Assembly (NCBI GenBank): GCA_024679065.1
Contig: JAGIQG010000016.1
Location: 40,424,001-40,488,000, forward strand
Origin: Sphyrna mokarran
Lineage: Eukaryota
DNA: 64,000 bases
Direction: 5' to 3'
Shown here: positions 32,187 to 62,648 of the stretch, in pieces
Position numbering within the stretch: position 1 is the stretch's first letter
How the letters are laid out: the number at the start of each line of letters is the position of its first letter
Notes under the pieces: model-generated
Database searches by the model: none
What the model saw: only the letters and a program-made list of their open reading frames with translations
Told to the model about the DNA's origin: nothing
Made by a program: the position numbers and the translations under genes

Positions 32187-32290
32187 TTGTAAACAATTTT
32201 GTTGCAAGTGACTCAAAAGAATCCTTCCCAGTCTTAGCTGTTTAAAATTTTCTCATTGCTGGAGAAATGAACTGTTTTTCTCTCTTACAG

Positions 32291-32478
32291 GCTGGGTTTC
32301 AACCATTTAACCGTGCAATGCTCTTCAATGTTGGATTTCTGGAGGCTTTGAAAGACTTGGACTGGGATTGCATAATTTTTCATGATGTTGATCACATACC
32401 TGAAAATGATCGCAATTACTATGGTTGTGGACAGATGCCAAGGCACTTTGCAGCCAAGTTAGATAAATACATGTACCT
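32291..32478 (+). CDS. B4GALT5: B4GALT5 coding exon 6 (AGFQPFNRAMLFNVGF...FHDVDHIPENDRNYYGCGQMPRHFAAKLDKYMYL)
   Basis: Acceptor tcttacag, donor CT|gtacgt; 188 nt. FNRA motif and metal-binding DVD (DxD) motif. Confidence 0.97.
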
Positions 32479-32554
32479 GTACGTCCTAATGCTTAATCTG
32501 TGATAATCGATTAACCATAACTAGACATAGAACTGGAAAACAAACCTATTAAGG

Positions 32555-33477: not shown

Positions 33478-33759
33478 TACTCTTTTCGTAAAGCTTTGTG
33501 AAACTCCAGAAAACCTGTATTTTGAATTGAGTTCTTCAGAAAGCTCTAAGCAAGGGGCTCGTTCTGATAGCCATCTTACACTTCTGTGTAAGATCATTGA
33601 GAAAGTCATAAAAAGTTGGCAGTGACTCTTGTTGGTTGCTCTGGTGAATTAGTACTCCAATGCGTAATAGACACATCCCGGTTCAATCATCGTCTTCCTT
33701 CAACTGCAACTGTTTAGACCCCTCCATCTTTTTTTAATAGTTCTGTCTTTTTTCTACAG

Positions 33760-33882
33760 ACTTCCTTACAATGAATTTTTTGGTGGAGTGAGTGGATTAA
33801 CAGTGGAACAATTTAGGAAAATTAATGGATTCCCGAATGCTTTCTGGGGTTGGGGAGGTGAAGACGATGATCTCTGGAAAAG
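33760..33882 (+). CDS. B4GALT5: B4GALT5 coding exon 7 (LPYNEFFGGVSGLTVEQFRKINGFPNAFWGWGGEDDDLWK)
   Basis: Acceptor tttctacag, donor AG|gttagt; 123 nt. Catalytic WGWGGEDDD motif intact. Confidence 0.97.
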
Positions 33883-35199
33883 GTTAGTTGGGCACAACAC
33901 AATTATGTGTTGTATCTAAGTTTGTACATCTGTCACTATACCAGACTGCATTTCATATAGATAGAATTAGTGTATTCAAATGAACACTATGTTGAATGTG
34001 ATTTTGCTTGACTTGGATTCCTACAGCAAGAACAAGTGAATTTGAATTTATATCTTTAAAACATTCCAAAGAGTTTCACAGCCAGTGAACTGTGTTAATG
34101 TGTGTATGGACAGATCAAACGTTCATAAATATATTGGGCCTGAAAATCTTAGAGTTGCATTGCTGTTGGAAATGTGGTGTTGCAGGTTTCTAACAGGCAG
34201 TTTACTCTGAGGTTGATTGTCCTGAATCCTTTGGGGCATGATCATTTAGAAAATCTATGGTGCATTTTGGGTGCCTGCCCTGATGTAGGCAAAACTTCCA
34301 TCCCCACAACTTCTCCTGGAAGGTTTGGGGGAAGCCAGTGCACTAATTTGGCCAAACACACAGCAGTAATGTGAAAGAATTATTGATCGTGGAGGCAGCT
34401 CCTTTTCCTTGAGCTGATCAAACACGTTCAAGAAACTGGCATTGTAGATCCCACCACTTCTATCAGCAAGATAACCTGGGAGCGTAAATATGCCTGTTCT
34501 GTGCAAGTACACTCTTTCGACATTGCGGGGTTGGGTGCTGAGGAGAACAAACTGCTGGAGTTAATGGTGGCTCATGCCACCCCAAATTGACCACCTTGTC
34601 TGACCACACAGTGAGTGTGGCCGATGCAAGAAGTATATGCCAAAATAATCTCTGCGTTTAAAATAAAACATAATTAATCTTGTAGCTTATCTTTCCAAAT
34701 TCTGCCCGTCCCTCAATCTGCCCAAATCTTGCATCTTGAAGACCTAGGAAATTTGGGACTGAAATTTTTATGAAAGATAATAAAAGATTTAATAATTGAT
34801 GCATTCATGTGTGTTACCCCTACAAAGTACAAATATTGTAATTGTGGCGTTGGTAGCTTTCTGATTGAGATAGATGAAAATAAGAAGTTGTTGTTTGTAC
34901 GTTGAAGTAATTTAACTTGTCATAAGCTCTAGCAGCTGACTTTTAGGTATTTTCCTAAAAAAATACATATTTTTGTGTACGATTGATTTATTCTTTAAAG
35001 AAGCTGAACAGTTCAGACTGCAATGCACTCACCAACTACGAATCTTTCCCCATCTCCTACCACTTAAATTTATTTTTTTCCATGCATCAAGGTGGCAATT
35101 TGGAGGACCTCCAATGTAGTGCTTTCTTTTCACGCAGAAAACCATTCTTGGTGCTGCATAAGAAATTGTTTCCTTTAACTGAGGTACTTAGAACATGGG

Positions 35200-38770: not shown

Positions 38771-39493
38771 ACTGTGAATATGAAACATTCCAGAAATATT
38801 AAAGGCACAAATGTGCCACTGTATGCGATCAATCCAGTTGTCATTGCTGCTGCAATATGTGGAATTTGAGTACTGGAGATATGAACGTATTAGAGTTATT
38901 TCTCTACTGTCATGTCTATATTCATAGTAATTTAGCAATGGGGTTAATTTTGGTTGTTGCCCTTGCAGTTCTAAATTACGTTATTGCCGTGATGTATATC
39001 TGTTTTCATTAGTCTTTGAGACAGGTCTGATAAAATGTTACGTCTATCCAGTAATTGTTAGGAATTATGTGTCTATTTTGTATTGTTAAAAAGGAAAGTA
39101 ACTTCATTATTGCATCTTCTTTGTTTGGGTTATTGATAGCAATGTCATGTAGGGACTTGCAGAGAGGGAATCACACGAGCATAGTCAGTAAAATATTTTT
39201 TAGGACGAGGTTCTTTAGTTTTTCTCCTTTTCACCTTCTCATATATATTGATGGTAAATGGAGGATAATTTAAGTTGGAAGAATGGCAGCTGTGCTGTTC
39301 AAAGGTTGTAACCTTTTATACTTTCAGACTATTTTGTCAAACTCAAATGTACTGCACTTGAAATCTTTGCAACAAAAATCCCTGTTATGAAAGTGAATAA
39401 ATCTTTGAATATTTGGACTTGCTTTGAATCAAGTGCATTAATTTCAATGTAACTGAAAACTTGTGTTTAGGAATCTGTGGCTTTTTTTTTAAG

Positions 39494-39595
39494 GGTTCAG
39501 TTTGCTGGCCTGACAGTGACAAGACCAGGGGGTGATTTGGGAAAATACAAATCTGTTCCTCACCACCATCGAGGGGAAGTACAGTTCTTGGGAAG
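39494..39595 (+). CDS. B4GALT5: B4GALT5 coding exon 8 (RVQFAGLTVTRPGGDLGKYKSVPHHHRGEVQFLG)
   Basis: Acceptor tttttaag, donor AG|gtaagt; 102 nt. GKYKSxPHHHRGEVQFLGR motif. Confidence 0.96.
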
Positions 39596-40830
39596 GTAAG
39601 TATCACTTTTTCAAGTACTGTGCTTGAACATATTTATTGGGTTTGGGTTCAGAGGGATGGTAAAAAAAAACATTCTTAAAATGGCTTGTCCAAGGTTATG
39701 AAATTATTTCAAAATAAATATTGATCTCAGCAATGTTAACAGTACAATAAAGTGAAAATTCTTAGTGATTTCTAGTATTGTGTGTGAAATGTTCAAAAAG
39801 TTATTGTAACAATCGTGTTCCTCGTGCTTCTACATTATAGACAAGCTATTGCCAAAATATTGGATGGTAAGTTGATCTGAAAAAGCTCTCCTTTTTGTAT
39901 AATTCCATTCCATGTATGAATGAACTTAATTATCACCTTGTGTAACCATATGTAATCCTCTAAGCCTTGCCTTTCAGCAATTGATCTAAGGAATTGGCGT
40001 TAAGACTCCCAACCTTTGGAGCATTCAGATCTAGACAACACAACCCTAAACCACATTAGATTATAAAGCAAATTAAGTAAAGTCTGGGCACAGATTTGCA
40101 TTACGACTGAATTTTATTAAGTTAAGAGTATATCTTGTTTATTCCTCATTGTTTCAAAATCCATACACGCATTTTTAGCAATGAAATGTGGAAACTTATA
40201 TTGGAAACCCAAGCATAAATGTACATCTTCAGGCTTGGAGCACAAAGGTTGTAAAAGAGTTGCTCTTAACTATGGGGATTAAATTGGCAGTGCACAGCAA
40301 GTACACAACCTGATTGTGGTGAGTTTCAGTACTGAGATTTTCTAGAGTATCCTTCAATTGTGAATGCAACACGAGTGGTGAAATTTGTCTTTATCCAGAA
40401 AGCAAACCATTAGGTATTCACTCACCAAGCAATATATTACCAACAGGCTTCAGAGTATTCATCTTTGTCTTAGAAGGCTGACTGGCCACTGTCACACAGT
40501 GAACACATATTATTGATACTGGTTTTCATATGCCAATGTCAGCTCACTCTGAATCCCAGAGTACAGTGACAGTAAATCGAGTAGTTGTGTATTTATCAAT
40601 CTGACTTTTGGGAAGTAATGGCTAGATTTTACTGTCAGAAATATACTGTGGTTCTTGTGGTTGACTACAAAAAAAACTGCCCGTAAAAATATAGCTGTTC
40701 CCCTTGCCTACCAACATTTTAAATATTTTACCAAGATGAGGTATTTTTGGTTGTGCAAAAGCGGTAAAGTGAATGACTTCTTATTCTGCCTCAATTACAT
40801 TGAAAATTCTCAGACAGCAAATCAGGAATT

Positions 40831-42963: not shown

Positions 42964-43111
42964 ATATGCTTTGTTGAGACATTCTAAAGAGAGGCAACAG
43001 CTTGATGGCCTGCAAAACTTGAAGTACTTTCCAAATATCACGGTTGAAGTCTTGTATAAAAATATAACTGTAAACTTGACACCGGAGCTGGCTCCAGTGA
43101 GTGACTATTAA
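42964..43111 (+). CDS. B4GALT5: B4GALT5 last coding exon 9 (RYALLRHSKERQQLDGLQNLKYFPNITVEVLYKNITVNLTPELAPVSDY*)
   Basis: Acceptor ttgttgcag, stop TAA at 43109-43111. YALLR and LYKNITVNLTPELA are B4GALT5-type. Confidence 0.96.
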
Positions 43112-44557
43112 GTTATAATAGGCATAATGGTTTAGTGAGGGTTAGGATTGCTTGCTCAGAAAAAAAAATTGATGGACTTGTAAACCTGATTTTTTTAAAA
43201 AAAAATCTGCAATGAGACAACACAAGTTCCTTTGCGTGGTCTTGTGGAATTGACAAGCACTCCTGATTTTACTCTGACAACGGGTTGGGTAATGGTCAAT
43301 GCCTTTGCAGAAGCGCTGGTGAGCATGATAAAATCAGGCTTGAAATTCCTTGTGTCATGAACTTCGTGAGTGTAACCCCTCATTCCCACTTTTCCAATTG
43401 GATAATAGTACATCATTGATCAAGAAGGAAAAATAAACTGGTGAATCCACATAGCAGCATTTGGGGCAATGAATCAAACTGAATTTCAAGACTGCAGATC
43501 TAGTTGGAAGCTATTGTATCATATTTTGGCATTGGATGCCAATAGGAATGAAGTGAGCAGTTTCCTTTCCAATCACCTTGTGATCAAATACTAAATTAGC
43601 TGAAAAGCATACCATTACCTTTTTTTTTTATTCACTAGTAATTGTGAATGCACTTCTAGTGGATGAAGTTTTTGTAAATAAGCTGTGAATTGCCAGATAT
43701 TTTTTTATTTATAGTCTACTGAACCACAAGGTTTACATGTTGAGATCAACAATTTAAGTCTGACACTGTTGTATATGTAAGGCACAGAACACACTGAATA
43801 CAATCCCCTTGACTTGTAAATCTGAGGTGATTTTATTGGTATGTGTTCCCAAATATATGACTTAGAGTGTTCCGTTTCAGCCCTCTTTACTGCTACACTC
43901 TCATGCTGCTGATATTCATTGTTCCGAGAAAATTTGGCAGTTTTATGCATGCCTTAGTTAAACTGTGGTTGCTTGACTTTATTCAATGTAACTGATTATA
44001 TTTGAAATATCAGCATTTTGTTAAAAGCAAATGTGTGCCAATAACACTGTAGCATTTGTTCTATCAATTCATAAATGACTACACTTAAAATGTAGAAAGC
44101 TATTTTCCACCTTTTATGAATTGGGTTTATGGCAATGCCAAGCCTGTTTCTTTAACATTCTGCATTTGGGGGTTCAACTGCCTTCCTTAATTCATGGCAT
44201 TTAGCTGCTAATGTCAGCTTCTCTGTCTGAATTGGTGAGCTCCTTTTGCCCTTATCATGTTTGTAAAATGTCAACTTACTGAGTTTGGTGCTAAAGCCCA
44301 TTGCCTGTTTAAATTGTTCAGCCATTTTAAAAAGAAACATGGTTTATAGTATTAAATGTTGTAGATGATCACTGCTCGAGAATGATAGGATGTGGCACTG
44401 CACATGTGATTCTGCAGATTTTTTTATGCCAAGGGTAAATGAAGTGTTAAGTGAAATATGAGCACACCATGCAACTTTTAACACAACTGCTGGTGATCCA
44501 TTGCTTTAAGTGCCAGGATAAGAAGAGATGGGGAAAAGATATTTTTTTTAAAGTGGG

Positions 44558-44593
44558 GTATATGTATATGTATATGTATATATGTATGTATAT
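44558..44593 (+). repeat. (TATATG)n-like microsatellite in the 3'UTR
   Basis: Direct reading of the sequence. Confidence 0.9.
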
Positions 44594-44761
44594 TTTTGTA
44601 TCAATCTTTAGTTTGCACCTTTTATGAGTCTTCTGATCGCACCCAACAATAAATGGTAGGGAGATGACACAGGCCCTGCTGTTTGCAGTGAGGAACAACC
44701 TAAGTGAGTCGGCATGGAAGCTTTTGTTGCAAGGTCATGATCAGTCCATATGAAAGGACAG

Positions 44762-44895
44762 CTAGGGATGAAATTTCTCCAGTCCATTTATTTTTTAGCT
44801 AAATTATTAGTGTGAACACAAAATAGAACTCCTATTTTGTTCTCTGCTAATCCTGTTTTGCTAAAGATTTTCAAGGTAAAGAATTTCGCTCCTAG
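44762..44895. repeat. Degenerate palindromic (MITE-like) element in the 3'UTR
   Basis: Termini CTAGGGATGAAATT and AATTTCGCTCCTAG; central perfect stem ACAAAATAG/CTATTTTGT. Confidence 0.6.
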
Positions 44896-45799
44896 ACTTA
44901 TCCTTGAAAGGCTGCTAGCCTTATTTAGTTTTTATGTTCGCATTGGAAGCTGATGTTTCACAAAGGAATATTGCAGGTATTATCCTGAAGACCAAATATG
45001 ATGCAGTCAAGAGTGTATAGCAATAAAGAGAAGGCTGATTTGTTTCATTTTCAGCTGTCAATGGTAACTTGTGTTGAATCTGATATATTGCTTTACTGCA
45101 GAAATAAAATTGTGATTGTATTTTGTTTCGATTGATAGCTATATGTAACCATATGTTTGTCTTTTTTCCACCTCTATATTTTTTTCCTTCTGATCCACTA
45201 CCACTCCTTCCCCAAAATGGCTTTGAAGCACTTAAATATGTACTGGTCATGTTTTGGTGATTTCTCTCCAATGAGTTTTTGTGTATTTGTATAAAGGAGA
45301 AAATTGTGATGTGCATGTTCCAACATAATATAGAAAACGTATTGAAAAATTCCATAGTTAAAGAATTGGGGAGGGAAAAAAAAACTTAAATCATCGAGAA
45401 AGGTATTTACTAGGTTTAGCTTTGAATCAGTTTGAAACAATGCAAACCAGATTTTAATTTTCCAACGTATCTACTGGGAAAAATCCCCGTCCATTTCACA
45501 AATGTGTTCCATGTTGTTGGGATGAAGGATAATCTTGATTTGGATCACTTTTTGCCATGTTTGGTGCACAAGACTCACAATATGTTAGTATGTGAGCCAA
45601 ATAGCATGCAAAGAAAGTTGGTAAATATGCAAGAGAGTAGAAAACCATCAAACTTTCTGTAACACACGCAGGAATAAGGCCTAATCAGATTTTTTTTTTT
45701 CAAATGTTGGCATGCACTGCTTATTGAATATGGTTCCTATTTAAATTTTTGTTGTATGGTCTAGTTTTTGCATGTTTCCAAATAGAACGGGACAGATCA

Positions 45800-45824
45800 G
45801 CAAAGTTCTAGACCTGTGCACTGA
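45800..45824 (+). promoter_or_regulatory. miR-148/152 8mer site with extended 3' pairing
   Basis: GCAAAGTTCT-AGACCT-GTGCACTGA compared with the reverse complement of recalled miR-148a-3p, ACAAAGTTCT-GTA-GTGCACTGA. Confidence 0.7.
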
Positions 45825-45933
45825 AAAGCATTGAAAAGTATTAGAGTTTTCACCTCAAAGCCTTCTGTCCCACCTTTCACACCTTTGATCATTTGTTATA
45901 CATTTTTGTATTAATTTATGGATGATTTTTTTC

Positions 45934-45939
45934 AATAAA
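45934..45939 (+). terminator. Candidate polyadenylation signal AATAAA
   Basis: Canonical hexamer after a U-rich tract at the end of the TE-poor stretch; an overlapping ATTAATAAA follows about 45 nt later. Confidence 0.55.
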
Positions 45940-46559
45940 AATGTGAAAGACACCATGAGTCAATGTGTAGATTATAACTAATTAATAAATGTCAGGGTAT
46001 TCATTCCATGAGACAATTCAAATTAAACATTTTAAATATCCTTGTTAGAGGGAACTTTTATATAAAAAAAAAGTCTGTAGAAAATGTTACACAAAGTGCT
46101 CTGACTGAGCCACATTAATTTGTGTAATAGATGTATTTAGAGTATCTGACCCACAGTCTTCACATTGATCACTGTACTATGAAGAATCTTGCTTTGACAA
46201 TTGGTTCATTGTTGTCTGATGCCAGTTCGTGCAATGTGACAATGTTTGTCTCAGACTGATGCCTGAGTAAGTATGTTGCCTCCACTGCTGCAGTTATTTT
46301 TTTGTAGAGGAAGAATTGAGGTGAGACTGCAAGGTGTTATTGGATAACTGATAATTCAGAAAATATTATATAGTTATTGCAGTTTTAATTCCAGAATGTA
46401 CTGTTAGTTTCCAAAATTCACTGATTAATAGCATTCATCACTGCTTGTGGAATGAAGCAACTTCTTAATTCACATGTACCAGTCTTGGTTGTCATGATCT
46501 ACAGTAATGTTGCAGTGCTGGAAACAACAGATCATATAGGGATATGGAAAGAGAGAGAG

Positions 46560-47460
46560 AGGTGAGTGGGATTATGTGGATGGCTCTTTCAAAGGATTAA
46601 ATGGCTGTCTTTGCTCTTCATCCCCAATGTGGAGGTTTGCCAAACTCCACCCACCGTATAAACACGGCCACTCCAACCATCTTTCAATAATTGTACTAAG
46701 GAGCTGCAGATGATGCATTTTGGTAGGAGGAACATGAGCAGACAATGTAACATGAAGGCAGAATTCTTGAGGTAATGCAGGAGCAGAAGGACCTGTGTGT
46801 ATAGACCCATTGATCATTGAAGATGGCATGACAGGAGGAGAAAGTAGTTAATAAAGCATTCTGGACTTTATTAATAGGAGCATAGAGTACAAGAGCAAGA
46901 GGGTTTTGCTAAACTTGTGCAAGACACTATTTGGACCTCAGCTCAAGTATAGTGTACTGCTCTGTCGGGCAGTATGGTGGGTTCCGGCTTGGAGGGCTGA
47001 AAGGCCTGTTCTTGTGCTGTGATTTTTTTTTTTTGTTCTTTGTTCTTTCACAGTATAAGTCTAAATGCAAGAATGGTCTCAAGGATGAGAAACTTCAGTT
47101 ATGAAGCTAGATTGGAGAGGTTGGGATGTCTTCCTCCTTAGAGAGGAAGGCTAAAAGCAGATTTGAGAGAGGGATGAATGTAGTCGATGGGATAAAACTT
47201 ATCATTTGTAAAAGGATCGAGAGCAAGTGAACAGATTTAAAGCGATTAGCAAAAGGAGCAAACATGATGAGAGAGAGAATTTTCTCAACTAGTGTTTCAG
47301 GAATGTACTACCTGGATGTAAGTGGAGGCAGGTTCAATTGAGTCATTTGACAATTTTGAATGGAAACAGCTTGTAAATGTATGAGCAGAGAAAAATGAGT
47401 CATTTGGAGAACTGGTGCAAGCACGATGGGCCAAATGGTCTATTGTATTGCAACAAGTCT
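46560..47460 (+). mobile_element. Degenerate CR1 3' portion with a small CR1-tail insertion
   Basis: ATGCATTTTGGTAGG, CATAGAGTACAAGAGC and GATGGGCCAAATGG motifs. Confidence 0.75.
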
Positions 47461-50076
47461 GAATTTAGTTGCCTAGGAAATAGACTAAAATTGACTTCTA
47501 CCTTGGATAAACCACTAGCTGTTATTTCATAGACCTTCCATATTCCATTCTGGTAAACAACATTTCTGTGATGCACGGGGGTTCATTTATTTAATGCCAC
47601 TTACTTTAGCTATTGTGCCAAGAACACTTAATGATGTGGGTTCCCTGGAAAAGTTGAGTTTTGAATAGATGAGGAAGAGTTCTGCTTGTTCGTTTTTAGC
47701 AAAAATAAGGCTTAGAAGGCAATATAACACTTATTTTTAGTTTGATTGGACTGATGGTATTTTGATTAAAATAGCTAGAGACTCCAGTACTATTTGTAGG
47801 TGAGGCAGTTACGAAAATTGGGTCAAAAATGATCTCTGCTTTACTGTGGACAAGTGTGTGTATCGGTATACTTCTGTGGTCAGAACAGAATGTTGGGAAA
47901 ATATCCCTTTCATGTGGTTTCCCCACTGATATCATTTTGATATTTGGAAACAGAAATATTTAGTTTTGTGCTAGTATACTACCAGTATTAAAGATGTAGT
48001 ACAACTACATTACAGGAATACTTAAGACTATCTTACACTTGTGACCTTGTGAAATAAACTGCTATTTGATACAGTAAGTATCTTTTTTCATTTTCAAAGA
48101 AAATGAGAAACTTGTTACAGGAAGATGTAAAATTGGACATGGTGATACGATTTTGGATAATAGATCTTTCAGAGAGAATGAACACATCCTCATTCTATAG
48201 TTTCTTCTATTAATTGGTGCTCTAAATAGAAAGTGATATCTATCCTTGAACCAGTAATATGGTAGGTAGTGGAGCTTTTGTGATTTCTGTTAGGTCTAGA
48301 ATATCTGGAATGATGCAAGCATGCAAAAAGTACTTAACCTATTTGATATCACACAGATAAAAGTGAGATGCTCTTTTGAACACCTGAGCTCAACTCTTGA
48401 GAAGTGAGATTTCTGTCCTTCTAATCCACTCACCCATTTGAATCACATGAATCTTCCTGGAAGGCTATTCAAAGATCAATCTTCGCATAAAGAAATTAAA
48501 CATATTTCCCTCCATCCTCTTCTCCAAAAATAAGTATGAGGAACTCTTGCACTTTGTTGCCATGGCGATTGTTATTATTCATTCAGCTACCTCTTGTCCT
48601 TCCCCTCCCAAGATTCTCCCCACCCTAGCCCCCTCATTCTATAGATTTGGGAAGTTTCTGCATTTTCCTGTCCCTTCTTTCCTCAGACTGACCATCAAGC
48701 CCAACTGTTCTTGATTCTATTCCTATTAAACTGCTGACCATCCTACTTCCTTTCTTGGTCTGAATGATAACTGGGCATTCTAAATTGTTGCTCTCATTGT
48801 TTTCCCCTCTTAATTCTCATTGTAGCATTGGCCCTTTTATTCCTGTGACCCAAGTTACCCCTTTGGGTCAATTTTGATCTGAGTGAATCTGAGACATTTT
48901 GGGATGTTTGCCTTGTGTGTGTTAATGGATGTGTATAAGCTTTATTCTAGAGGCTTAACATAGTAACTAGATTAATGCCAAATCTATCCATATTTTAAAA
49001 AAGTTTCTGAATGTGACACCTGTTAATTAAGTGACAGAATTGTTGGATCATTTCAAGCTCTCATTGCAAAGAGATGCAATTAAATTGGATGCTTGGAATT
49101 CTTAATATTGTGTATTAAAAATTAGCTTCCATAGATTGGATTTATGGTTCTGTAAGTTAGTTTTTAGCTCAAAAAGTGAGTATTAGCAACATTGATCACC
49201 AAAATGAATAATGATTTTCCCTGCCAATCAAAGAAATAATCACTTCAATGTATTGCTAATTCATTTCTTATTTTCAGGGTATTGATAAAGTTATTGGTGT
49301 CCTAATGTTTACAAGAAGAGTCTGGTTTTAATATTATGTATTAAGATATATTAAATGATTTCAATGTGTACAAGTGTGTAGAAAATACTGAATGACCACA
49401 AATTAAATACAAGAAAGTAAGTGACTGCCAAAAGAGAAATAAAATGACCTTGTTATTACCAAAGAAGAATGATCCTCATGTTCACATTGGTGATACTTTT
49501 GACAGAATCCTCCTTCATAAGAAGGAATGTTAATCTGCATGAGTGTCCTGATGAATTATCTGTGATTGAAAATATCAAAATGACCAGGAGCAGAAATGGG
49601 AATAGAATCCAATAAAAAATACACCTGAATGAAAGGTTTGAACAGCAGTTAATCCAAGACCAGTAATTCTACTAGTCATTGGGTATGTGGAACCGCAAGT
49701 TGTCGAGATACAAATCTGTGATAAATATCTATCGTACTTTAAATTCGTATCATCAGAGTTGCTGTTGCAAAAAAAATCAGTAAATCTCAACAGTGTAAAT
49801 GCCAGCTATTGTGGCTGAATGGAACTGGTTCTGCTAAAGTGACTTTGGAGGAACAATCCTTTTTTTAGTGTCTCCATTTTTTTTGCAGGAACAAGCAAAA
49901 ACTTTTGCTGCTTTTGTGATATTTATAGTTTGTAAGATGGCTTATTCTTTTAAATATGAAGTTACAATAAATTGAATTCAAATTTGGTTTAAAATGATAC
50001 TTGCAGTGAAATAGCTTAAGTAAATTGTGACCATCTCAACCTATAAACAGTAAAAATGCGGAAAATTATTCGTCAA

Positions 50077-50292
50077 ATCCCTACAGTGCAGAAGGAGGCC
50101 ATTTGTACATCAAGTTTGCACAGCTCTCCAAAAGAGCACCTTACCAGGCCCTGCATAACCCCACACATTTTCCATGGCTAATCCACTAACCTACACATCT
50201 TTTGAACTGCAGATGCAAACCATAGGAAACCTATGTAGCCATAGGGAGAAGGTGCAAACATCATCTAGGCAGTCACCCAAGGCCAAAATTGA
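50077..50292 (-). mobile_element. HE1-like V-SINE, tail class A
   Basis: ATCCCTACAGTGCAGAAGGAGGCCATT tail plus core. Confidence 0.8.
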
Positions 50293-50749
50293 ATGAATTG
50301 TTGCAAGCTGACAAAACCCCAGAAGAGTGTTGGAGAATCCCCTTGAAATTCCCAGGAAAAGTTTGCATGACAATTGCCCAATTGGGAGGTAGGCATTGCG
50401 GAGGGGGAAGGTGGCGCATGGTGATGTTGCTCAGCATCTGCATGGGTGGAGAATTGGGCTTGGCCTCAAACATCTGATGGACAGTAGCGCCACGCCACCC
50501 TGCATGTCAGTCTTGCCTAGTGGTATGAGGGTATCTGCATTGGTGGATGCTGTACTAAACTAATGTGACAATACATCCTGAGAGGGTGCAGCCTTATCTG
50601 TGGTCCCTAATGGCTCCAATAGCATCTGCCCTTACCACTGGCCTTGGGAGAGAGAAAACAATTTGACAGCATCCCCATGTTTCCCCCTTTGTTCTGCCTG
50701 TACATGTTCATGAGCTGCATGTGATCATAGATCACAGAGACAACACAAG

Positions 50750-51080
50750 AAAACTGGGAACAAAAAAAAGTACAGCACAGGACCAGGAACTTTGGGCCTC
50801 CAAGCTTATACCTACCCTGCTGCCTGACTGAACTACTCTTCCAGGGAGTATTCTCTTTCTTCTCATCCTATTCATGTATTTGTCAAGACGCCCCTTAAAA
50901 GTCACTATCATATCTGCTTCCACGATCTCCCCCAGCATTGAGTTCCAGGCACCTTCTGTGGTTTTAAAAAGAGAACTTGCCTCGTAAATCTCCTTTTAAA
51001 TTGCCCTCACACCTTAAACCAACATTCTTTTCTAATTGACTCTTCCCACCCTGAGAAAAAGCTTCTGATAGTCTACTAGA
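50750..51080 (-). mobile_element. CR1 3' end
   Basis: Peptide EIVEADMIVTFKGRLDKYMNR. Confidence 0.8.
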
Positions 51081-52594
51081 CAATAGAAGACTAAAACTAC
51101 TCCTAACCTCCTTGATAACAATTGTTCAGAACCAGACTGATTGCCACCACACCCTTTACCTCCCAGAAGCATCCGAGTTCCTGCCTACCTCATCCATTGG
51201 AATTCTCCCGACCTCTCTGGAGGAGGACTTCTCTTCTGCAGCACTGGATACCACCCTTTCCTTCCCACAGAGCCTGCTGCACCTCATCCAGAGGCTTTAA
51301 CCACCTTCAATGCAAATTGTTCTAGGGAAATGTGACACCATCCAAATTAAATTTACTGGATGTTATGATTCTCGGCCAGACTGTCTCTCAAGATTTTTGT
51401 TAAAAAGTAGTTTAAAGACCAAGAGGCTTTTTAAGTTGTTAAGATTTGATATTTAAAATATGTTCTCAGTGAATAAAGTCCCAAGGATTCCATGGGTTTT
51501 GAATAAACAGAAATAAACATGACTGTACAAGATCAGGCAGATCAAAGACTCAGGGTAAGTATTGCTTTTGCATTAACAAACCAACTTTGGTAAGATGCAA
51601 TCAAGATGATTCACGGATTTCTCAACAACCGACCCTTATATCAATAGTACTGCATTAACACATCTTGCTGAAGCTCTAATGAGGAATTCCACTCTTCAGC
51701 TTTTGAAGATTTAACTTGGGAATTCTTCAAGGTCACTCCAATTCAAGCAATCCACTTCACAGGGTTTAAATCTCATCACCTGAGACTTTCTGGCCATGCT
51801 CACCACAAGGACAGAAAATCCTACCCAAGGTCAACAGACCTTTGCACAGTTCTGTCCTGCCTGCTACCATTCCTGTGGATCCCGCCTTCTGTTCTAGATT
51901 TGTGTATGCAGTCAAATGTCAACTTATAAGCACAACTTTATCTCTGCAATGGCAGTAAGCAATACACAAATGTTCCAAAAGGGTACCTTTGCCTTCAATG
52001 GTTTGCAGCTGTGAAACTGTCTGCTGTAGAAGAAAAGTGAAAAATAAATAAGAACAGTAGCTGATGTGAGAACAGATTTATAGCCATCATAAAAGAAGCT
52101 AGCAATCTACTATATCTATATAAATAATGGAGGGATCTTGAAAGGTGTAGGGCTAATTAGAACTAAAAAGATGACTTGCGCATTAAGGTAGCGGGCACAA
52201 CTGAAGCATTCTTCTCTTACCTATGCAGAAGATATTGCCCAATTTGTAGTGAAGCAGATGTAATTGAGACAGGGATGAGTCTAAAAGTTGCTGAGATTGT
52301 TGGGTTGGCTGTTGACAAGCTACCCAGGACTGAATGGGCTATATCTGAGGATACTAAGAGAAATAAAGGTAATAAAGAAATAAATGATGCCATTATGGAG
52401 GCATCAAACTTAATCTTCTAATCACTTTCAGTTAGGGATGGCACTAGAGGACTGGGGATTAGCAAATGGCACAGCCATGTTTGAAAAAAAGGTGCAAGGA
52501 TAACCTCTAGTGGGGCAAGCTTTTTAAAAATTATAATCCAGAACAAAATTTACAAGTTACTTGGACAAATCTGAATTAATTAAAAATAATAAAT

Positions 52595-54390
52595 CTCTCA
52601 ACACCAGCTTAAAGTCCAAAAGGTTTATTTGGTAGCACAAGTTTTTGGAATACTGCCCTTTCATCAGTTAAGTGGGAGTTCTGTTCACAAACAGGTCATA
52701 TAAAGACACACACTCAATTTACAAAATAATAATTGGAATGAGTCTTTACAGGTAATCTTGTCTTTACAGGTACAGCCAATGAGTGGAGAAAGGGTTAAGC
52801 ACAGGTTCAAGGTATTATCTCCAGCCAGGACAGTAAGTGAGATTTTGCAGGCCCAGGCAAGTTCGTGGGGATTACAGATAGTATGACATGAACCCAAGAC
52901 TCTGGTTGAGGCTGTCCTCATGTGGAACTTGGTTATCAGTCTCTGCTCAGCAACGCTGCACTGTTGTGTGTCGTGAAGGCTGCCTTGGAGAATGCTTACC
53001 CGAAGATCAGAAGTCACGGGCATCTGGCCTCTGAAGTGTTCCCCAACAGGAAAAGAACAGTCTTGCCTACTGATTGTCGAGTAGTGTTCCTTCATCAGTT
53101 GTCTGCATGGTCTCCCCAGTGTACCAAGCCTTGGGACATACTTTCCTGCAGTGTATCAGGCAGATAACACTGGCTGAGTCCCAAATATATGTATGTGTAC
53201 CCTATGGTGGATGGTGTTTATATGTAAGATGATGGCATTAGTGTTGACGATCCGGCATGTCTTGCAGAGGTTAATTTGGCAGGGTTATGTTGTATCATGG
53301 TCACTGTTCTCCTGCAGGTTGGGCAGTTTGCTGTAGACAGCCATCTGTTTGAGGTCGTGCAGATGTTTGAAGGCAAGATGTGGGGATGGCCTTGGTGAGA
53401 TGTTTGTCTTCATTGATTACACGTTAAAGGCCCTGGAGAAGATATTGTAGCTTCTCTGCTTTAGGAAAGTACTGGACGACAAAGGGTACTCTGTCCACTG
53501 TGTCCTGTGTTTGTCTTCTGAGGAGGTCAATGTGTTTTCTTGCTGTGGCATGTAGGAACTATTGATCAATGAGTCAAATGCCATATTCTATTCTGAGGGC
53601 ATCTTTCAGTGCCTATTGCGATCCTCCTCATCTGAGCAGATCCTGTGCATATGGAGGGCTTGTTCCCAGGGGATGGCTTCTTTAACATGCTTCAGGTGGA
53701 AGTTGGAGAACTGGACCATCATGAAGTTATCCGTGGGCTTGCAATACAGTGTAGTGCTGAGGTGACCATCCTTGATGGAGCTGCGTGTATCCAAGAATGC
53801 AATTGATTCCAGAGAGTAGTCCGTGGTGAGTCTGATAGTGGGATGGAAGTTGTTGATGTCATCACATAGTTGTTTCAGTGTTCACCATGAGTCCAAAGGA
53901 AGAAAATGTAGCTACTGTGTAGCATTGGTTGAAGATCCTGTGTGGTGAAGAGGTCTTGTTCGAATCTGTGCATGAAGATGTTGGCATATTGAGGTATGAA
54001 TTTGATCCCCATGGCTGTTCCATGTGTCTGGATGAAAAAATTGGTTTTTGAAGGTGAAGACACTGTGGTCCAGGATGAAATGGATAAGTTGTATAATTGC
54101 ATCTGGAGATTGGCAATTGTCGGCGTTGAGTATTGAGGCAGTGGCAGCAATACCATCATTGTGGGGGATGCTCATCGAGTGCCATTGTGATGATGAGTGC
54201 TCCTGGTTCAACTGCTCCATGTATGCTGAGCTTCTGTAGGAAGTCCGTAGTGTCGCGACAAAAGCTGGGCTTTCGGCAGCACACAAAGCATAGGGCTTGT
54301 GCTGTCAAATAAACCTATTGGATTTTAACCTGGAGTTTGTAAGATTTCTTACTGTGCTTACCCCAGTCTAACATTGGCATCTTCACATCT
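52595..54390 (-). mobile_element. Penelope-like element (RT plus GIY-YIG, frameshifted) with inverted terminal segment
   Basis: Peptides QTHGTAMGIKFIPQYANIFM, LSTTLYCKPTD, ALHMHRICSDEE and FPVGEHF; 54295-54345 is an inverted copy of 52598-52642. Confidence 0.9.
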
Positions 54391-54749
54391 TAATTAAGAA
54401 TAGCCAGCATGGATTTGCAAAGGGTGCATTGTGTTTCATTTGATTAAGCTTTCCATGAACCAACACAGGGTTGTTGAGGGTAATGTAATGATGCAGTTTA
54501 CTGTGAGGGCCAAAAGGTGTCTGATAAGTACCACTTAATAGAATTGGCAGCAAGTTGGAAGTCCATAAAATAAAAAAGGACTGTAGTAACATGAAGCTGA
54601 AAAAGATTGAATAATAGGTGAGCGTCTTTTTTTTTCAGACTGGACATGTTATACAGTGAGGCTTGTGTTGCTACCACCAATATTGAGATGCAGGATACAA
54701 TTTCAAAATTTGAAAGTAACACAGAATCTGAAAGTATTTTGACCTATAA

Positions 54750-56330
54750 CGGTAATAGAGAAGACCCTGGAAATCATAGGCCGGTGCGTTTGACGTCAGT
54801 GGTAGGGAAGCTGTTGGAGGGGTTTCTTAGGATGTATAGGCACTTAGAGCATTGTGATCTGATTAAGGATACGCAGTGTGGCTTTGTTGAAGGGAGATTG
54901 TGCCTTACGAATCTGGTAGAATTTTTTGAGATGACGAAAACGGTTGAAGGGCGCGCCGTTGATGTTGTCTGTGGATTTCAGTAAGGCGTTTGACAAAGTC
55001 CCTCATGGGAGGTTAATTGAAAAGGTCAAGGCTAATGGAATACAAGGACAGGTAGCTAGATGGATAAGTAACTGGCTTGGTAATAGGAGACAGAGTAATA
55101 GTGGAAGGATGTTTTTCTAGCTGGAGGTCGGTCACTAGTGGTGTGCCGCAGGGCTTGGTACTGGGACCTCTTCTATTTGTAATATATATAAATGACTTGG
55201 AAGAGGGACTAAGTGGAGTGATCAGCAAGTTTGCAGACGATACAAAGATGGCTGGACTTGTGGATAGTGAGGAGCATTGTCAGATGATACAGCAGAGCAT
55301 AGGCTGGTTGCATGGGCAGAGAGATGGCAGATGGAATTCAATCCTGATGAATGTGAGGTGATGCATTTCGAGAGAAAGAACATAGTGGGGAGGTATATGA
55401 TAAAGGGTAGACCTTTTAAGAGTATAGAAACGCAGAGGGACCTGGAGGTGCAGCTGCACCAGTCTCTGAAGGTGGCAGAGCAGGTGGAGAAGGTTGTGAA
55501 GAAAGCATATGGTATACTAGCCTTTATAGGAAGGGATATAGAGTACAAGAGCTGGCCTTTTAATGTTGCAGTTGTGTAAAATGTTGGTTAGACCTCATTT
55601 GGAATACTGTGTCCAGTTCTGGTCGCCTTACTAGTGGAAGGATGTGGAGACTCTGGAGAGAGTGCAGAGGAGGTTTACCAGGATGCTGCCTGGTATGGAA
55701 GGTCTGAGTTACAAGGAGAGGTTAGGCAAATTGGGACTGGAGTTATTTGAGATACTTAGATGGGCACATGAACAGAATGGGAATGGAGGGATATAGAAAA
55801 CTGATTTAAAATAGGAATCATGAGCCTTGGGAGTTCCCTGGGAAGTGTGTAAATTGTCGATGATATTGATGTATTTGTTTTATCCTACAGGTACTTCGGT
55901 CTGCCTTGCCTATCAAGGGGCATACACGCAATGGGTCGTGAGAGGACTGCTCTTGGATTTTTCGAGAGTAGCCTAATGCATCATGTTGTTAGTGTACGCT
56001 TGACCTGGACCATTTGATGGGCAACACGACAGCACAGTGACTATCGCTGTGCTGTGCAGATACATGGATTTAGACCTGTGTCTGTGGGAGTTTGCGCATT
56101 CTCCCCGTGTTTGCATGGGTTTTCTCCGGGTGCTCCAGTTTCCTCCCACATCCCAAAGATGTGCTCTTAGGCTAATTGGCAGAACAAATTCTCCCTAAAT
56201 TGTCTCAAATTTGGTTCTAATGCATAGATGTATAAATGTAAAAGGGATCACGGATAGAAGTGGGTACATCAAGGTGGCAACACGGGCTCATTGGGCTGAA
56301 GGGCCTGTTTCCTGTGCTGTTTTCTTTTTT
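54750..56330 (+). mobile_element. Relatively young CR1 with composite 3'UTR (copy 2); candidate TSD CTATAA
   Basis: Peptides PGNHRPVRLTSVVGKLLE and SGVPQGLVLGPLLFVIYINDL...SKFADDTK; CTATAA at 54744-54749 and 56331-56336; ORF2 stop at 55807-55809. Confidence 0.9.
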
Positions 56331-56599
56331 CTATAATAAGGGTGTAGATTTAGAAAGCACGTGAGCTGGTATAATGGGTGGACATGTTGTAGGTGAAAAT
56401 GCAGAGATGTATGAAGTGATCCTTTTTGGTCTGACAAATGAGGAAGAACAATGAGACTCAATATAACATGAAGGATATAATTTTAAAAGGATTAGAGGAA
56501 TGTAGGCCAAAAGTGGACAATTGGGGCTAGCTGAGAGGGCATCACGATTGGCATGGACTGCTTGGGCTCAAGGGCCTGTTTTCGTGCTGTTTTGTTCTG

Positions 56600-57116
56600 A
56601 GTGCAGGAACAAAGAGGAGCGAGGGATGGGGGTGGGGTGTCCCTCTGCCACTGCATTGGGATGGAGGGAGGGCAATGATTTGGAGGGGGTGGGGTTGGAG
56701 TTGGTCAGGGGACGGACTTGCCAGGGTTTGGGTGGGGGGGGGGGTGGTGTGGGGAGAAGCCTGAGCATCAGGACTCTGCAGGGGGTGGGGTGGAGATGGA
56801 GAGAAGGATTCAGTGCTCCTTTGTGAGGGCTATGATTGGGCTGTGAGAGGGGCTGAAGGGATGCCATTAGAGTTCCCAGGTTTGCTAGCCAATGGGAGTT
56901 TCACAGTTTGGGGCTATTGCACATGCGCAGAGCTCCAGAACTGTCAAACTCTGGCATAAATAGGCCCCGTCCTCCTTGGGTTTTTAATGAGATACCCAAC
57001 CGGGCCCTCTGCATTGCACAGGGTACAGAGATTCAGGTGAGAAGCTGAACTGTCAGAACCGTTGTGATCTAGAACAGTTTTCCTGCTAATTCAGCACTTT
57101 TGGGAGAATCGTCCCC
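56600..57116. mobile_element. GC-rich non-autonomous DNA-transposon-like fragment
   Basis: G-rich body ending GGGAGAATCGTCCCC, resembling termini I recall from shark MITEs; partner terminus not found. Confidence 0.4.
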
Positions 57117-57726
57117 TTTATATCTAATTCTGGGCACAGCACTTGAAGGGAAAGTTGAAGCATCGGATAAGGCGCAGCAGAAGTGCGTGGTTCCAGGGAT
57201 ATACAGCGTTACTTAAATAGCTGCGGCTGCTCATAATGCAGAGGAAAGTAACAGAAGATTTGATTGACATATTGGAAGTCACGAGGGGTCTAGACAAAGT
57301 AGATAAGGAGAAACTGTTCCCATAGTGGAAGAGTCAAGAACCAAAGGACACAAGTTAACTTGATTGACAAATTTCCTCATGTCGTCTCTCTAGGTTGTTT
57401 TTTTTATGCAGTGAGAGGTTATGTGTTGGGATGCGTTGTCTGAGAATTTGGTTACGGCAGATTCAGTCATGACTTTCAGAAAGGGAATTGGATAATTATC
57501 TTAAGAGGAAAAAATTGGAGGATTGGTTGAGAGGATGTAGCTATGTTGTTTGTACTTTGAAGCGGCGTGGACATTGACCGAATGGCTAGCATTTATTGCC
57601 CATCCCTAACTGTCCTTGAGAAGGTGGTGGTGAGTTGCCTTCTTGAAGTGCTGCAGTCCATATGTTGCGTTAGGGAGGGAATTCCAGGATTTTGACCCAG
57701 CTATGGGGATGTAATTGTTCTATGAT

Positions 57727-59238
57727 TGTAATGGTTACCCAGCCCAAGTTCAAACGTTTAAGCTATTTTCAGTGTCAAGTCTCATGAGCAATGCAAGGAT
57801 GCACCCAGTGAAGGAACAAGATGAGTCTGATAGCAACTTCCGATATTTTGTTTAGTTGTATGTGTTGAGATACCAAAGACCACTCTGATTTACACTGTTA
57901 CAGTAAGCATTGTTTATCTCATTATTTGAATCAAAATCTTTTAAAATTACGCTTTACAAGCTGATGTTGTTTAGAGCTGTATATTTCTGACAGTTTTTGT
58001 GCATTTAAAATTGTGATGGGGACAGGGTGCAGGGTTAATTGAAATGGGGGGAATTGCTTAAACAATCTAGAGCTAGATTGTTTAAACAATTAAAGCTTAA
58101 AGGTGTTTGTGTATTTGTAATGAGAGATTTCTGGTGGATTTGTTATGGGTTGGATCTGAAATTTGCATTGTGAAAATCATCATAGAATCATAAAACCCTA
58201 CAGTGCAGAAAGGAGGCCCTTTTGGCCAATCGAGTCTGCACTGACCATAATCCCACCAAGGTTCTACTCCCATATCCCTACAAGTTTACTCGCCAATCAC
58301 ATTAACCTATGCATCCCAGGACACTAAGGGACAATTTTCTAGCATAGCTAGTCAACCTACCCCGCACATCTTTGGACTGTGGGAGGAAACTGGAGCATCC
58401 GGAGGAAACCCACGCAGACATGAGGAGAATATGCAAACTCCACACAGACAATGACCCAAGCCGGGGATCGATCCCAGGTCCCTGGAGCTGTGAAGCAGTA
58501 GAGGTAACCGTGAGATGACCGGGGAAGTTTTTTTTTCAGCTGTTGAATCTCATTTCAAAAATGAGACAAACAAGGATGTTTGAGTTTGTAAACAGGGAAA
58601 AGTATATTAAAGCACAAGCAAATCGAAAACATGAAAACACTTTTTATATTTGGAAAAGCTGAATTCACAGGCATTTAAACTCAATGAAATTAGTAACAGA
58701 TATTTAAAGGGACGTTTAACTGTGAGTAACATTGCTGTGGGGAGAGCGCGAGAAACTGCATAAGTTTTGAATTGGAGGTATCCACCACATGTTAAGCCAG
58801 AAGAATCTTTAGAATCATTGATTTGTTTTAGGAAACAACTTTTTCTTAGGCCCCTTTTGAAATTCCATATCAGAAATCATGACGTGTATCTTTTATTGAA
58901 GTTACACAATTTCTTGGCTTTGGTAATATTTACCAGATTTTTATGATTAAAATCTGTAAGGAATTGTTGCCAAAAATGATAGCTTAATTGTGTACTTTTG
59001 ACCAACCACATTTCGGGGGTTATTCAATAAGATTGTTTTAACTATAACGTTTATCTTGTGTGCTTTGGATTTTTATTTTTTAAATAAACTTAATTTTTTT
59101 TAAATTCTAAAAGGTATTACTGGACATCAGTGGCTCTTCCTCCTTGGTTTCACAACAGGGAAAAAAAGTTCATGATTGGTGAGACTGATTTCACTGAGGT
59201 CTAGGCGTTCAACAATAACAAAATATGTAGTTGTAACA
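57727..59238 (+). mobile_element. Possible solo LTR (Gypsy-like), with a SINE inside
   Basis: TGTAA...TAACA ends, AATAAA at about 59083; no clean TSD. Confidence 0.35.
58177..58510 (-). mobile_element. HE1-like V-SINE, tail class A, well preserved
   Basis: CATAGAATCATA tail, TTTGGACTGTGGGAGGAAAC core, B box. Confidence 0.9.
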
Positions 59239-59577
59239 GATTATTTTTAAAACAACTGAAGAGGAGGATCAGAATTCCTTATGGCATGCCAATAATTCAA
59301 AAAATAAATAGCAAAATTTTATTGCTTTTGGACTTTGGTAGTTAGCAAGCAGTTGATAAAATATCAGTTGAGCTTAAACCCAAATAAATAATGTTTTTAT
59401 TTTCTAAGTTAATTGTATGGCAATCATACTGCTTGTAAGTTTAGTAAAATACAATGGCTGATGCACCCATTTATGGAAATGTTTAATCATCAGAATCATA
59501 ATAGAGTCATAGAAGTTTACAGCATGGAAACAGGCCCTTTGGCCCAACTTGTTCTTGCTGTCTTTTTTATAGTGTAG

Positions 59578-59830
59578 AGATGCTGGCGTTGAACTTGGGT
59601 AAACACAGTAAGAAATCTGACAATACCAGGTTTAAATCCAACCGATTTATTTGATAGTAAATTCACAAGCTTTCGACCCTCTGGTCTTTGTCAGGTGAAT
59701 AAGGTGTTCTGGTCTCAAACAGCACATATAACAGCACAGACTGCTAACGGATTACTGATTAGAATGCGAATCTTTACATCTAACCTGCTATTCAAGTCTT
59801 AAAGTGGCTAACAATGTGTGTAGAAGGAGC
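59578..59830 (-). mobile_element. Penelope terminal fragment containing a hammerhead motif
   Basis: Similar to 52595-52790 and the inverse of 54295-54390. Confidence 0.75.
59661..59700 (-). ncRNA. Minimal type I hammerhead ribozyme motif, probably inactivated
   Basis: Minus strand ATTCAC-CTGACAA-A-GACC-AGAG-GGTC-GAAA-GC-TT-GTGAAT: perfect stems I and II, core with one substitution. Confidence 0.65.
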
Positions 59831-60959
59831 ACTGTGAGGCAGTATTGCACTGGACTGTGGGAGTTATCTAAAAATATGGTTTAAATTGCTAACTTCAGAT
59901 AGTTTGGCCTTGGTTACACTTATAGTTACTCCAAAAAAGTTTGAAGAATTTAAACCCGTTGTAATTTCTGCGTAAGTACTCCTCTGGGACAAATGTGAGG
60001 TAATGCATTTTGGAAGGTCTAATACAGATAGGAAGCATACAGTAAGCAGCAGAACCCTTAAGAGTATTGATAGACAAGGGATCTGGGCAAATGAGCACAC
60101 TGAGTGTACAGTTTTGGCTAAAAGACAAAGATTAAATGCACCAAAATTTGAAATCCAGCAGATTGGAAGATATACAAAAAGAATCAAAGGGTTGCAAAAA
60201 AAAAGTAGAGATGTAAAAATGAATGTGGAAAACAAAAGGATATCAAAGCCTTAAAAAAATTTAGTATATTGAAAGTGATAAAGGAGAATGTGGACCCATG
60301 AAAGAAGGCTGCAGGGAAGGTGAGAATGACTTTTAAGAAAATAGATTTTTAAACTGAATACTTTGTGTAAAAGAAGACTATCAGCACCGCTAAGGAAACT
60401 AAGTCAAAAATAAATTGTTAGCAAATGTACTAAAATTTTAATAAAATGGGGAATGTAACAATTTAAGTGAACAAATGTTCAGGATAATATTCTTTACCTC
60501 CAGTATTAAATATGAAATGAGATTTAAAATCATTAATCATATTACAAAGTTCTTCAAGTTTGGAAATTGTGCCATTGGACATTGAATATGCCACTCGACT
60601 ATTTTAAGAATGGAGGGAAGAGAAAATAGCTAACAGCTCTGTTTAACATCCACTGTGGGCAATGTATTGGAGTCAAAGGTGGTCAGCATGGATTTATGAT
60701 GGGCAGGTCTTGTTTGACTAAATGAAGAAAGTCTTGTGACCTGTTGGCAAGTCTGCCTGACAACAAACTTGAATGGTTTGATTGTTAAATTAAAGGGAGC
60801 TTCCATTATTTTACTGTGCAAAAGGTACAAGGTGTTTATATTTGGAGACAATGGCAACAGTTTGTGTGTTACCACTAAATAGACTGAAAGTCCACAGTAT
60901 CCCAGAAGAGTACTGAGAACGTCGGGTTATAAGCGTTGTGCTTAAAACTGCCCATTTAC

Positions 60960-62070
60960 ATAGAAACTGGGAGCAGGAGTAGGCCATTTGGCCTTTCAAG
61001 CTTGCTCCACCGTTGAGGATCAGCCATGACCATATTCAGTCTCAATGCCATATTCCTGCTTTCCCCTATACTGCTTGATGCCATTAAAATCTAAAACATT
61101 ATCTATGTCTTTCTCGAATATATTCAGTGACTTGCCCTCCACAGTCTTCTGGAATAGAGGATTCGACAAGTTCATAACCCTTTGAGAGAAAAAAAATTCC
61201 TCATCTCAGTCCTAAACAGTTTATCCCATATCCTGAGACACGGTCCCCAGTTCTAGATAAAACATCCTTCCTGCATCTAATCTGTCCAGCCCTGTTAGAA
61301 TTTTATATGTTTCAATCGAATCTCCTCTCATTTTTCTAAGCTATAGTGAATACAGGCCCAGATGAACCAATCTCTCCTTGTAGCATAGCTTCTCAAATGC
61401 TAGTGTCAGCCTAGTGAACCTTGTTGTGGGAAATTCACCACTTTGGAGTCAGACTTGGAGATTCAACTAAACAGTTTTATTTGGACAAAGCTTTGGGAGA
61501 AGCATCGGTACTCTGCAGGGCTGGCAGCCACCTTCTCAATTACACAATGGCAGTTGATAACCTTCCTACTTTTTAAATAATAGGTAGGATGGACATTAGG
61601 CATTAGCATATCATTACAAGTTGAATAGATAGATATGGACATCGACAATTAACACATTGTTATAACCAGACAGGTATGGACATTTGATAGATAACATAAT
61701 TGTACATAGAGTAGATACGTTTATGCATGATAACAAAAAATGACTGGTTTTGTTATATACGTTTATGTCGCATCTGTAGCTGATCTTGTTATCAAACTCA
61801 TTGTTCTGTGTCTGCTCTTATGTCAAGTTTTAAGGTGCCTCAAGGTATTACCAGTTTCCTGCAGCGATTTGAAACACCACAGGGTTTTAACTCTTTTTGT
61901 ATAAATGTCTGTGCCCAAAGTCAGTGTCTCTTAATGTCCTTTCCCAGAGTCTGTTTTTTGTGCCAGGTAACTATTTTGCGCTAATCGCTTCGATTTCACC
62001 CTAACAATCTCCACTGCACTCGCTCCATGGCAAGCATATCCTCAAGTAGGGAAACCTAAACTGTAATATC
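60960..62070 (-). mobile_element. CR1 3' portion split by an LTR
   Basis: GGAGCAGGAGTAGGCCATT tail; the CR1 reading GTGAACCT...CTGCACTC resumes after the insertion. Confidence 0.8.
61422..62006 (-). mobile_element. Solo LTR (585 bp), ERV- or Gypsy-like
   Basis: TG...CA ends with imperfect inverted termini TGTTGTGGG/CCCTAACA, 4-bp flanks ACCT/ATCT, minus-strand AATAAA at 61476-61481, clean interruption of a CR1. Confidence 0.7.
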
Positions 62071-62129
62071 TTCTCAATGTTGAGAGATTTGGTACTGTGA
62101 GTAAACAAAGGGATTTAAATGTCTTTACG

Positions 62130-62380: not shown

Positions 62381-62648
62381 TGCATGTGGTCACACGTAAT
62401 ATATTGGTGATACTATTAAAAACAATTGCTGATAGTTATCTTGTGTATACACCAGGTGGAATAGGTTTGAGAGACTAAATGAATTCACTCCTGTTGATGT
62501 ATATGAACCCTCTAAATAAACTATTGTATGACCAGAAATGATCACTTAGCATAATCATTGAAAATGAATAATAATTATTCTCAAGCTTTGCATTAATTCT
62601 GTGGTGCAGTATTTAGGCTGCAAAGTAATACGCATACTAAGATGCAAT

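Follow-up and report, generated by a model that had tools for sequence, protein, structure and literature searches.

The window (the whole stretch of 64,000 nt that was analysed) carries on its forward strand eight coding exons of a beta-1,4-galactosyltransferase, the GT7 catalytic exons among them, from 10654 to a stop codon at 43109-43111. The upstream coding exons lie at approximately 10654-10788, 19434-19553, 22830-22955, 28084-28209, 32288-32479, 33755-33886, and 39492-39596; the coding part of the last exon (42964-43111) ends in TAA, and exon 1 was not found within the window. At the protein level, the last exon shares 96-98% identity with shark and ray B4GALT5-like proteins and 79-82% with the B4GALT6 of these fishes. 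In a tree of 31 named proteins, picked from 67 and 120 matches listed and with the window gene represented by near-identical shark and ray proxies, the elasmobranch B4GALT5-like proteins cluster with bony-vertebrate B4GALT5 at 99/98. Judged by this identity and this tree, the host gene is the elasmobranch orthologue of B4GALT5, the name that the initial annotation had given it. B4GALT5 and B4GALT6 are the enzymes that make lactosylceramide (PMC13476684). Many B4GALT5/6 records from sharks and other species (P0001, P0003, P0004, P0011, and others), of approximately 344 aa, miss one internal coding exon, e.g., the match of 28084-28209, which suggests either conserved exon skipping or annotation artefacts. 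Downstream of the gene, decayed retroelement ORFs occupy 52688-55587, the pieces of which we take to be reverse-transcriptase-like and endonuclease-like, and no neighbouring host gene was recognised by eye in 46000-64000.

The stop codon is followed by a putative long 3'UTR of approximately 2.85 kb (43112-45960, forward strand), which is unique sequence in the window and whose end is placed by hexamers only. A transposon origin of the UTR was considered and rejected, as no second UTR copy lies within the window. A candidate distal poly(A) hexamer, AATAAA at 45934-45939 on the forward strand, starts 110 nt after the microRNA site discussed below, just as had been claimed, and a second lies at 45984. 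The 8mer of this site starts 2,706 nt past the stop codon, and the UTR upstream of it contains four AATAAA and one ATTAAA; thus, shorter isoforms could omit the site, and its place in the mRNA is a predicted one. Poly(A) hexamers occur at 43432, 44351, 44648, 45022, 45103, 45934, 45984, and 46022, and alternative 3' ends at these eight hexamers would include or exclude both main miR-148 sites. Candidate elements of the Pumilio type are located at 43673 and 44575, the second within a short TA/TG-rich repeat (44560-44595). The most stable predicted hairpin of the UTR lies at 44792-44868 and has a long stem, a perfect 9-bp top, and a 5-nt loop. It is the best of 186 UTR windows (z -3.6 to -5.1), has no Rfam match at gathering score, and may serve in regulation or as a substrate for editing.

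The site itself occupies 45800-45824 on the forward strand. Its letters are as originally described: G45800, a 9-mer (45801-45809), a loop (45810-45815), the stretch 45816-45823, and A45824. The miR-148a sequence used in the initial annotation agrees with the human entry in the Helwak 2013 supplement (PMC3650559), from whose miRNA_seq column the human sequences of miR-148a, -148b, and -152 were taken; all pairing figures presuppose that the shark miR-148/152 sequences are identical to them. By sequence match, 45817-45824 is an 8mer seed site of the miR-148/152 family (pairs with nt 2-8 and A opposite nt 1), and G45816 pairs with nt 9 of miR-148a and forms a wobble with miR-148b and -152. The 3' pairing block (45800-45809) forms nine Watson-Crick pairs with nt 13-21 of miR-148a/b and a wobble (G:U) with nt 22; miR-148b was rightly said to have the same 3' end (nt 11-22 of the two human sequences are identical), and miR-152 forms only seven pairs with the block (nt 13-19). 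Between the block and G45816 lies a 6-nt target loop (45810-45815) opposite nt 10-12, with an offset of +3. RNAduplex pairs nt 1-9 and nt 13-22 of miR-148a with 45800-45824. The pairing first proposed therefore holds for nt 1-9, nt 13-21, and the wobble at nt 22, except that nt 12, taken to be unpaired, may pair with G45811 as an optional extra pair, A45810 being bulged. The duplex energies are -26.4 (miR-148a), -24.3 (miR-148b), and -20.2 (miR-152) kcal/mol, and the 3' energy (nt 11-22) is -12.1 kcal/mol.

Among the 23 family seed matches on the plus strand of the window, this site is the best, with a 3' run of 9 vs. at most 5. The second, seed-only family site that had been reported (TGCACTG, 45713-45719, forward strand) is real; it is a 7mer-m8 approximately 100 nt upstream of the main site and has a 3' run of 4 nt only. 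A weak 6mer match lies at 44395-44400 on the same strand. Slicing of the mRNA at the main site was rejected, as nt 10-11 are unpaired, and so was a degenerate miR-148 precursor (the site resembles the 5p arm): the reverse strand of the window contains no copy of the 9-mer, and no Rfam model matches. Rfam covariance models gave no match at gathering score in the whole window and none at E up to 10 in 45700-45900; six sub-threshold matches lie inside the UTR, none of them at the site. At 45818-45837, the seed region and a near copy directly after it form a 10-nt tandem (90% identical), and the copy makes no second seed match.

The initial annotation saw in this architecture that of a trigger of target-directed microRNA degradation (TDMD), and as far as geometry is concerned, the comparison with published triggers bears it out. 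Triggers have an 8mer, at least six 3' pairs from nt 12-13, a loop of 3-11 nt, and a 3' energy of -9.6 to -17.1 kcal/mol (PMC10899785). The shark site has nine contiguous Watson-Crick pairs and one wobble from nt 13, a 6-nt target loop with nt 10-11 unpaired, which would prevent slicing, and a 3' energy of -12.1 kcal/mol, which was computed by RNAduplex and is set here against a range computed by another program. When scored after Lin et al. in a simplified form without gaps, it earns 10.5 of 11 points, and its sequence features agree with three published schemes. Recognition by ZSWIM8 requires a flank of approximately 25 nt, shows no sequence preference, and depends on loop length (PMC13083262); UTR flanks of more than 25 nt are present on each side of the site. 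The likeness to the validated triggers Cyrano, NREP, and BCL2L11 extends to the seed, the central loop, the 3' helix from nt 12-13, and the non-coding position (PMC10899785). However, Cyrano has 14 contiguous 3' pairs compared with 9-10 in the shark site, and all three sites are embedded in long conserved blocks (PMC10899785). Moreover, most triggers break pairing at nt 9-10 (PMC10899785), whereas nt 9 is paired in the shark site.

It should be noted that few well-paired sites prove to be real triggers, and high expression of the trigger RNA is listed among trigger features (PMC13041716). Indeed, 20 of 37 predicted sites failed although overexpressed (PMC8887481). Among the 30 of 40 rows listed from these overexpression data, the sole miR-148-family row, MTMR9/miR-148b, shows no effect (PMC8887481). 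The miR-148 sites in MTMR9 and MMP15 predicted by TDMDfinder have the same family and the same predicted architecture as the shark site, which nonetheless exceeds the seven miR-148a TDMDfinder rows listed in its Watson-Crick run (9 vs. at most 8; PMC8887481).

A perfect 9-mer had been credited with a chance of 4^-9 (3.8e-6), which is correct for one fixed register but rises to approximately 1e-4 per seed site when the register is free. When 6,000 random pseudo-miRNAs were matched to 127.6 kb of the window's own sequence, 13 of 99,014 simulated 7-8mer sites (1.3e-4) had a 3' run of at least 9 with free register and free loop length. A score of 10.5 was reached by 9 of 127,480 background flanks (7e-5), which overlap and represent just one or two places. 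A duplex energy at least as good as that of the site was reached by 59 of 60,000 flanks (1e-3), and the combined pattern by none of 100 shuffles. The site ranks in the top 0.01-0.1% of seed sites. On the assumption of 200 miRNAs and 20 Mb of 3'UTR, a genome should contain approximately 68 sites with a 9-run (0.3 for miR-148a alone), and approximately 6 when only 8mers with a score of 10.5 are counted. The site is rare singly and unremarkable in a genome-wide look; it is notable, but it is no proof of selection.

Within this context, the seed might be real and the 9-mer a chance neighbour with no selected role, which would vary among sharks and rays as the surrounding UTR does. Such a reading draws on the 68 sites that the per-site frequency implies, on the approximately 34 expected among 257,466 conserved human pairs (PMC8887481), on the recurrence of the 9-mer at 60545, outside the gene, and on its probable lack in mammals. 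It is harder to reconcile with the expectation of approximately 6 for an 8mer with this score, a number that is lower still at seeds conserved from sharks to mammals, or with the register, which is a favoured one (start at nt 13, offset +3, reaching nt 22). We consider such a coincidence rather unlikely.

RNA folding offers a further perspective. In a context-dependent fold, 45746-45771 (forward strand) is a possible 5' arm of an 82-nt hairpin (45746-45827) whose 3' arm would be the whole site (45800-45827). In sequence, the 5' arm is similar to the miR-148 site in reverse complement, most of the differences being G:U-compatible, and this likeness may reflect an old inverted duplication or U-rich chance. 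If the hairpin formed, the site could be gated by structure, i.e., hidden until a protein or helicase opens the hairpin. An 86-nt fold indeed pairs nearly all bases of the site (MFE -23.3, z -2.27), and the core helix has a probability of 0.97-1.0 in contexts of 86-200 nt. However, that stretch was picked after the fold was known, 15 of 186 UTR windows have z of -2 or lower, and the helix probability falls to 0.01-0.20 in contexts of 360-560 nt. The cost of opening the site (7.4-10.2 kcal/mol) is close to the UTR median of 8.7, and no full Pumilio element is located nearby. The predicted hairpin is thus unexceptional for the B4GALT5 UTR and vanishes in longer contexts, and we regard gating as highly improbable. 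One calculation places the seed alone in the bottom tenth of accessibility, which is a small point against high potency.

A link between miR-148 and B4GALT5, as put forward for the shark gene, has already been predicted and listed in mammals. B4GALT5 is at rank 15 in the miRDB top 20 for miR-148a (PMC4941693) and at rank 4 in a three-database list (PMC13762750), and in mouse B cells it is one of 119 candidates for targeting by miR-148a, although tolerance was not broken there when it was knocked out (PMC9134011). The miRDB top 20 contains both paralogues, B4GALT5 and B4GALT6 (PMC4941693), a hint that regulation by miR-148a is older than their duplication. The predicted mammalian site (TargetScan/miRDB; PMC9134011) shares with the shark site the gene, the family, and 10 bases around the 8mer. 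These bases (45817-45826) recur unchanged in a human B4GALT5 3'UTR fragment from AGO1-CLASH (transcript 4570-4614), which, unlike the shark site, has a T opposite nt 9 and hence leaves nt 9 unpaired (PMC3650559). The fragment begins exactly one base beyond where the 9-mer would end; it was ligated to miR-29b and shows AGO occupancy at most (PMC3650559). The suggestion to look for miR-148/B4GALT5 chimeras in CLASH data yielded nothing in favour of the pairing, since the Helwak rows listed contain two B4GALT5 chimeras, with miR-29b and miR-503, and none with miR-148 (PMC3650559). Probably, the seed at the site is old enough to be common to mammals and this cartilaginous fish. The equation of the human fragment with the orthologous distal site rests on the 10 identical bases and on a presumed distal position, which would follow from a human B4GALT5 mRNA of approximately 4.7 kb.

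The 3' block appears to have a different history. TDMDfinder lists conserved sites with at least seven 3' pairs, a bulge of 2-8 nt, and an energy ratio of at least 0.7, and it contains no B4GALT5 row among its 2,069 human and 1,796 mouse predicted pairs (PMC8887481). If the loop and nt 9 of the shark site are rendered unable to pair, its ratio is still 0.86-0.88 (RNAduplex), which would pass this cut-off; thus, we infer that the 9-nt block is missing in human and mouse. Provided that the site belongs to TargetScan's conserved set, mammals probably lack the 3' match. The seed would then be common to the shark site and its counterpart in mammals, and the difference between them, so it seems, would lie in the 3' block. 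No claim of a B4GALT5/miR-148 trigger was found in open-licence main texts. In 11 of the 14 files of the Li 2021 supplements, B4GALT5 has no match; miR-148a is absent from them as well, so the candidate table may lie elsewhere. The input of LncLOOM comprised amniote UTRs of 300-3000 nt only.

The defining functional feature of a trigger is a different matter. In the data of Shi et al. (PMC10620050), miR-148a, -148b, and -152 are missing from the ZSWIM8-sensitive sheets for 12 mouse tissues and occur in the levels table only. The median log2 (knockout/control) over these tissues, calculated with a column order deduced from miR-7a, for which computed ratios match the published ones, is -0.10 for miR-148a, -0.11 for miR-148b, and -0.07 for miR-152 (PMC10620050), and the maximum for miR-148a-3p is +0.16. 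A log2 above 0.2 is seen in 0 of 12 tissues for miR-148a, 0 of 12 for miR-148b, and 1 of 12 for miR-152, compared with 12 of 12 for miR-7a and 8 of 12 for miR-29b; the exception for miR-152 is stomach (+0.60), where its 5p strand is slightly down (PMC10620050). Thus, miR-7 and miR-29b, the partners of Cyrano and NREP, rise in the ZSWIM8 knockout, whereas miR-148 does not. The control tissues contain 400-6,800 CPM of miR-148a (PMC10620050). In three of three human fibroblast lines, all three family members are classed as 'none', miR-148a being low there (Lin et al., PMC13041716). Term searches of the main texts of five TDMD studies (PMC10620050, PMC13041716, PMC13631368, PMC10499020, and PMC8653786) did not find miR-148. 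In these mouse and human data, the family shows no ZSWIM8 sensitivity, so the feature that defines a trigger is not seen where such data exist; the site is therefore trigger-shaped but is not filed as a trigger here. The claim that B4GALT5 destabilises miR-148 finds no support as a conserved mechanism, given this insensitivity and the lack of the mammalian gene in the lists of predicted triggers.

Nonetheless, triggers may be lineage-restricted, so the mammalian negatives lower the case for a shark trigger without closing it. Plagl1/miR-322 is instructive: the miR-322 seed match occurs across mammals, extensive pairing only in Muridae and Afrotheria, and the site triggers in mouse, not in human (PMC13041716). 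Like the shark site, it lies in the 3'UTR of an mRNA and combines a seed match that is old with extensive 3' pairing that is restricted to certain lineages, but miR-322 is strongly ZSWIM8-sensitive in mouse and the trigger was validated by deletion (PMC13041716), whereas the shark site is predicted from sequence. By this precedent, the site could be a physiological ZSWIM8-dependent trigger for miR-148a/b in cartilaginous fishes, either gained there on the old seed site or lost in mammals; possibly, it represents the ancestral state of jawed vertebrates, which mammals have reduced to a seed-only site. The agreement with three schemes and the flanks that ZSWIM8 binding requires are in keeping with this, as is the observation that overexpressed sites with at least nine Watson-Crick 3' pairs were positive in three of three cases among the 30 rows listed, one of them a positive control (PMC8887481). 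Weighing against it are the insensitivity of the family in mouse and human data, its silence in the TDMD studies searched, the paired nt 9, and the high abundance of the family; moreover, the pairing of the site rests on human rather than shark miR-148 3' ends. All in all, we deem a physiological trigger unlikely.

The explanation that we favour, with guarded confidence, is that the site is probably an old canonical miR-148/152 repression site in the distal B4GALT5 3'UTR, in which lineage-restricted extended 3' pairing raises affinity while the abundant family remains undepleted. What is found is what defines a canonical target, a 7-8mer seed match in a 3'UTR. The original proposal of a trigger had a weaker alternative, an unusually high-affinity target, and this part gains support. 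Taken overall, an ordinary silencing site with added grip is the most likely identity of the claimed trigger, and a miRNA-destroying signal is a less likely one. Several observations sit uneasily with plain repression. Under a simplified form of the scoring scheme by which real triggers were identified, the site reaches 10.5 of 11 points, its 3' energy lies within the range of validated triggers, and its Watson-Crick run is longer than those of the human miR-148a rows listed in TDMDfinder (PMC8887481). An 8mer represses with little 3' help, and pairing to the last bases, if selected, fits a trigger better. The negative data are all mammalian, and only 18 of 41 miRNAs that are ZSWIM8-sensitive in mouse are sensitive in human fibroblasts as well (PMC13041716).

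If the site acts as a canonical repression site, AGO loaded with miR-148/152 would bind the 8mer, and pairing of nt 13-21 across the 6-nt loop, to judge by the computed energies, might prolong the dwell time and favour miR-148a/b over miR-152. As nt 10-11 would stay unpaired, the mRNA would not be sliced; it would instead be deadenylated and repressed, as is established for the miRNA pathway, with the 7mer approximately 100 nt upstream assisting. A decrease in B4GALT5 would then mean less lactosylceramide synthase where miR-148 is high. Some tailing or recognition by ZSWIM8 would be possible, though not enough to reduce a miRNA family of such high abundance.

If the repression reading alone holds, the finding would be modest: it would date the predicted miR-148/B4GALT5 link to early jawed vertebrates. 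If, on the other hand, the site proved to be a trigger, it would be the first known for the miR-148 family and the first from sharks, and the target and its miRNA would repress each other at the entry step of glycosphingolipid synthesis. The locus would also illustrate how, over 450 million years, a seed site becomes a degradation trigger or ceases to be one, and it would allow a clean test of what distinguishes the perfectly shaped sites that cause decay, a minority, from the rest.
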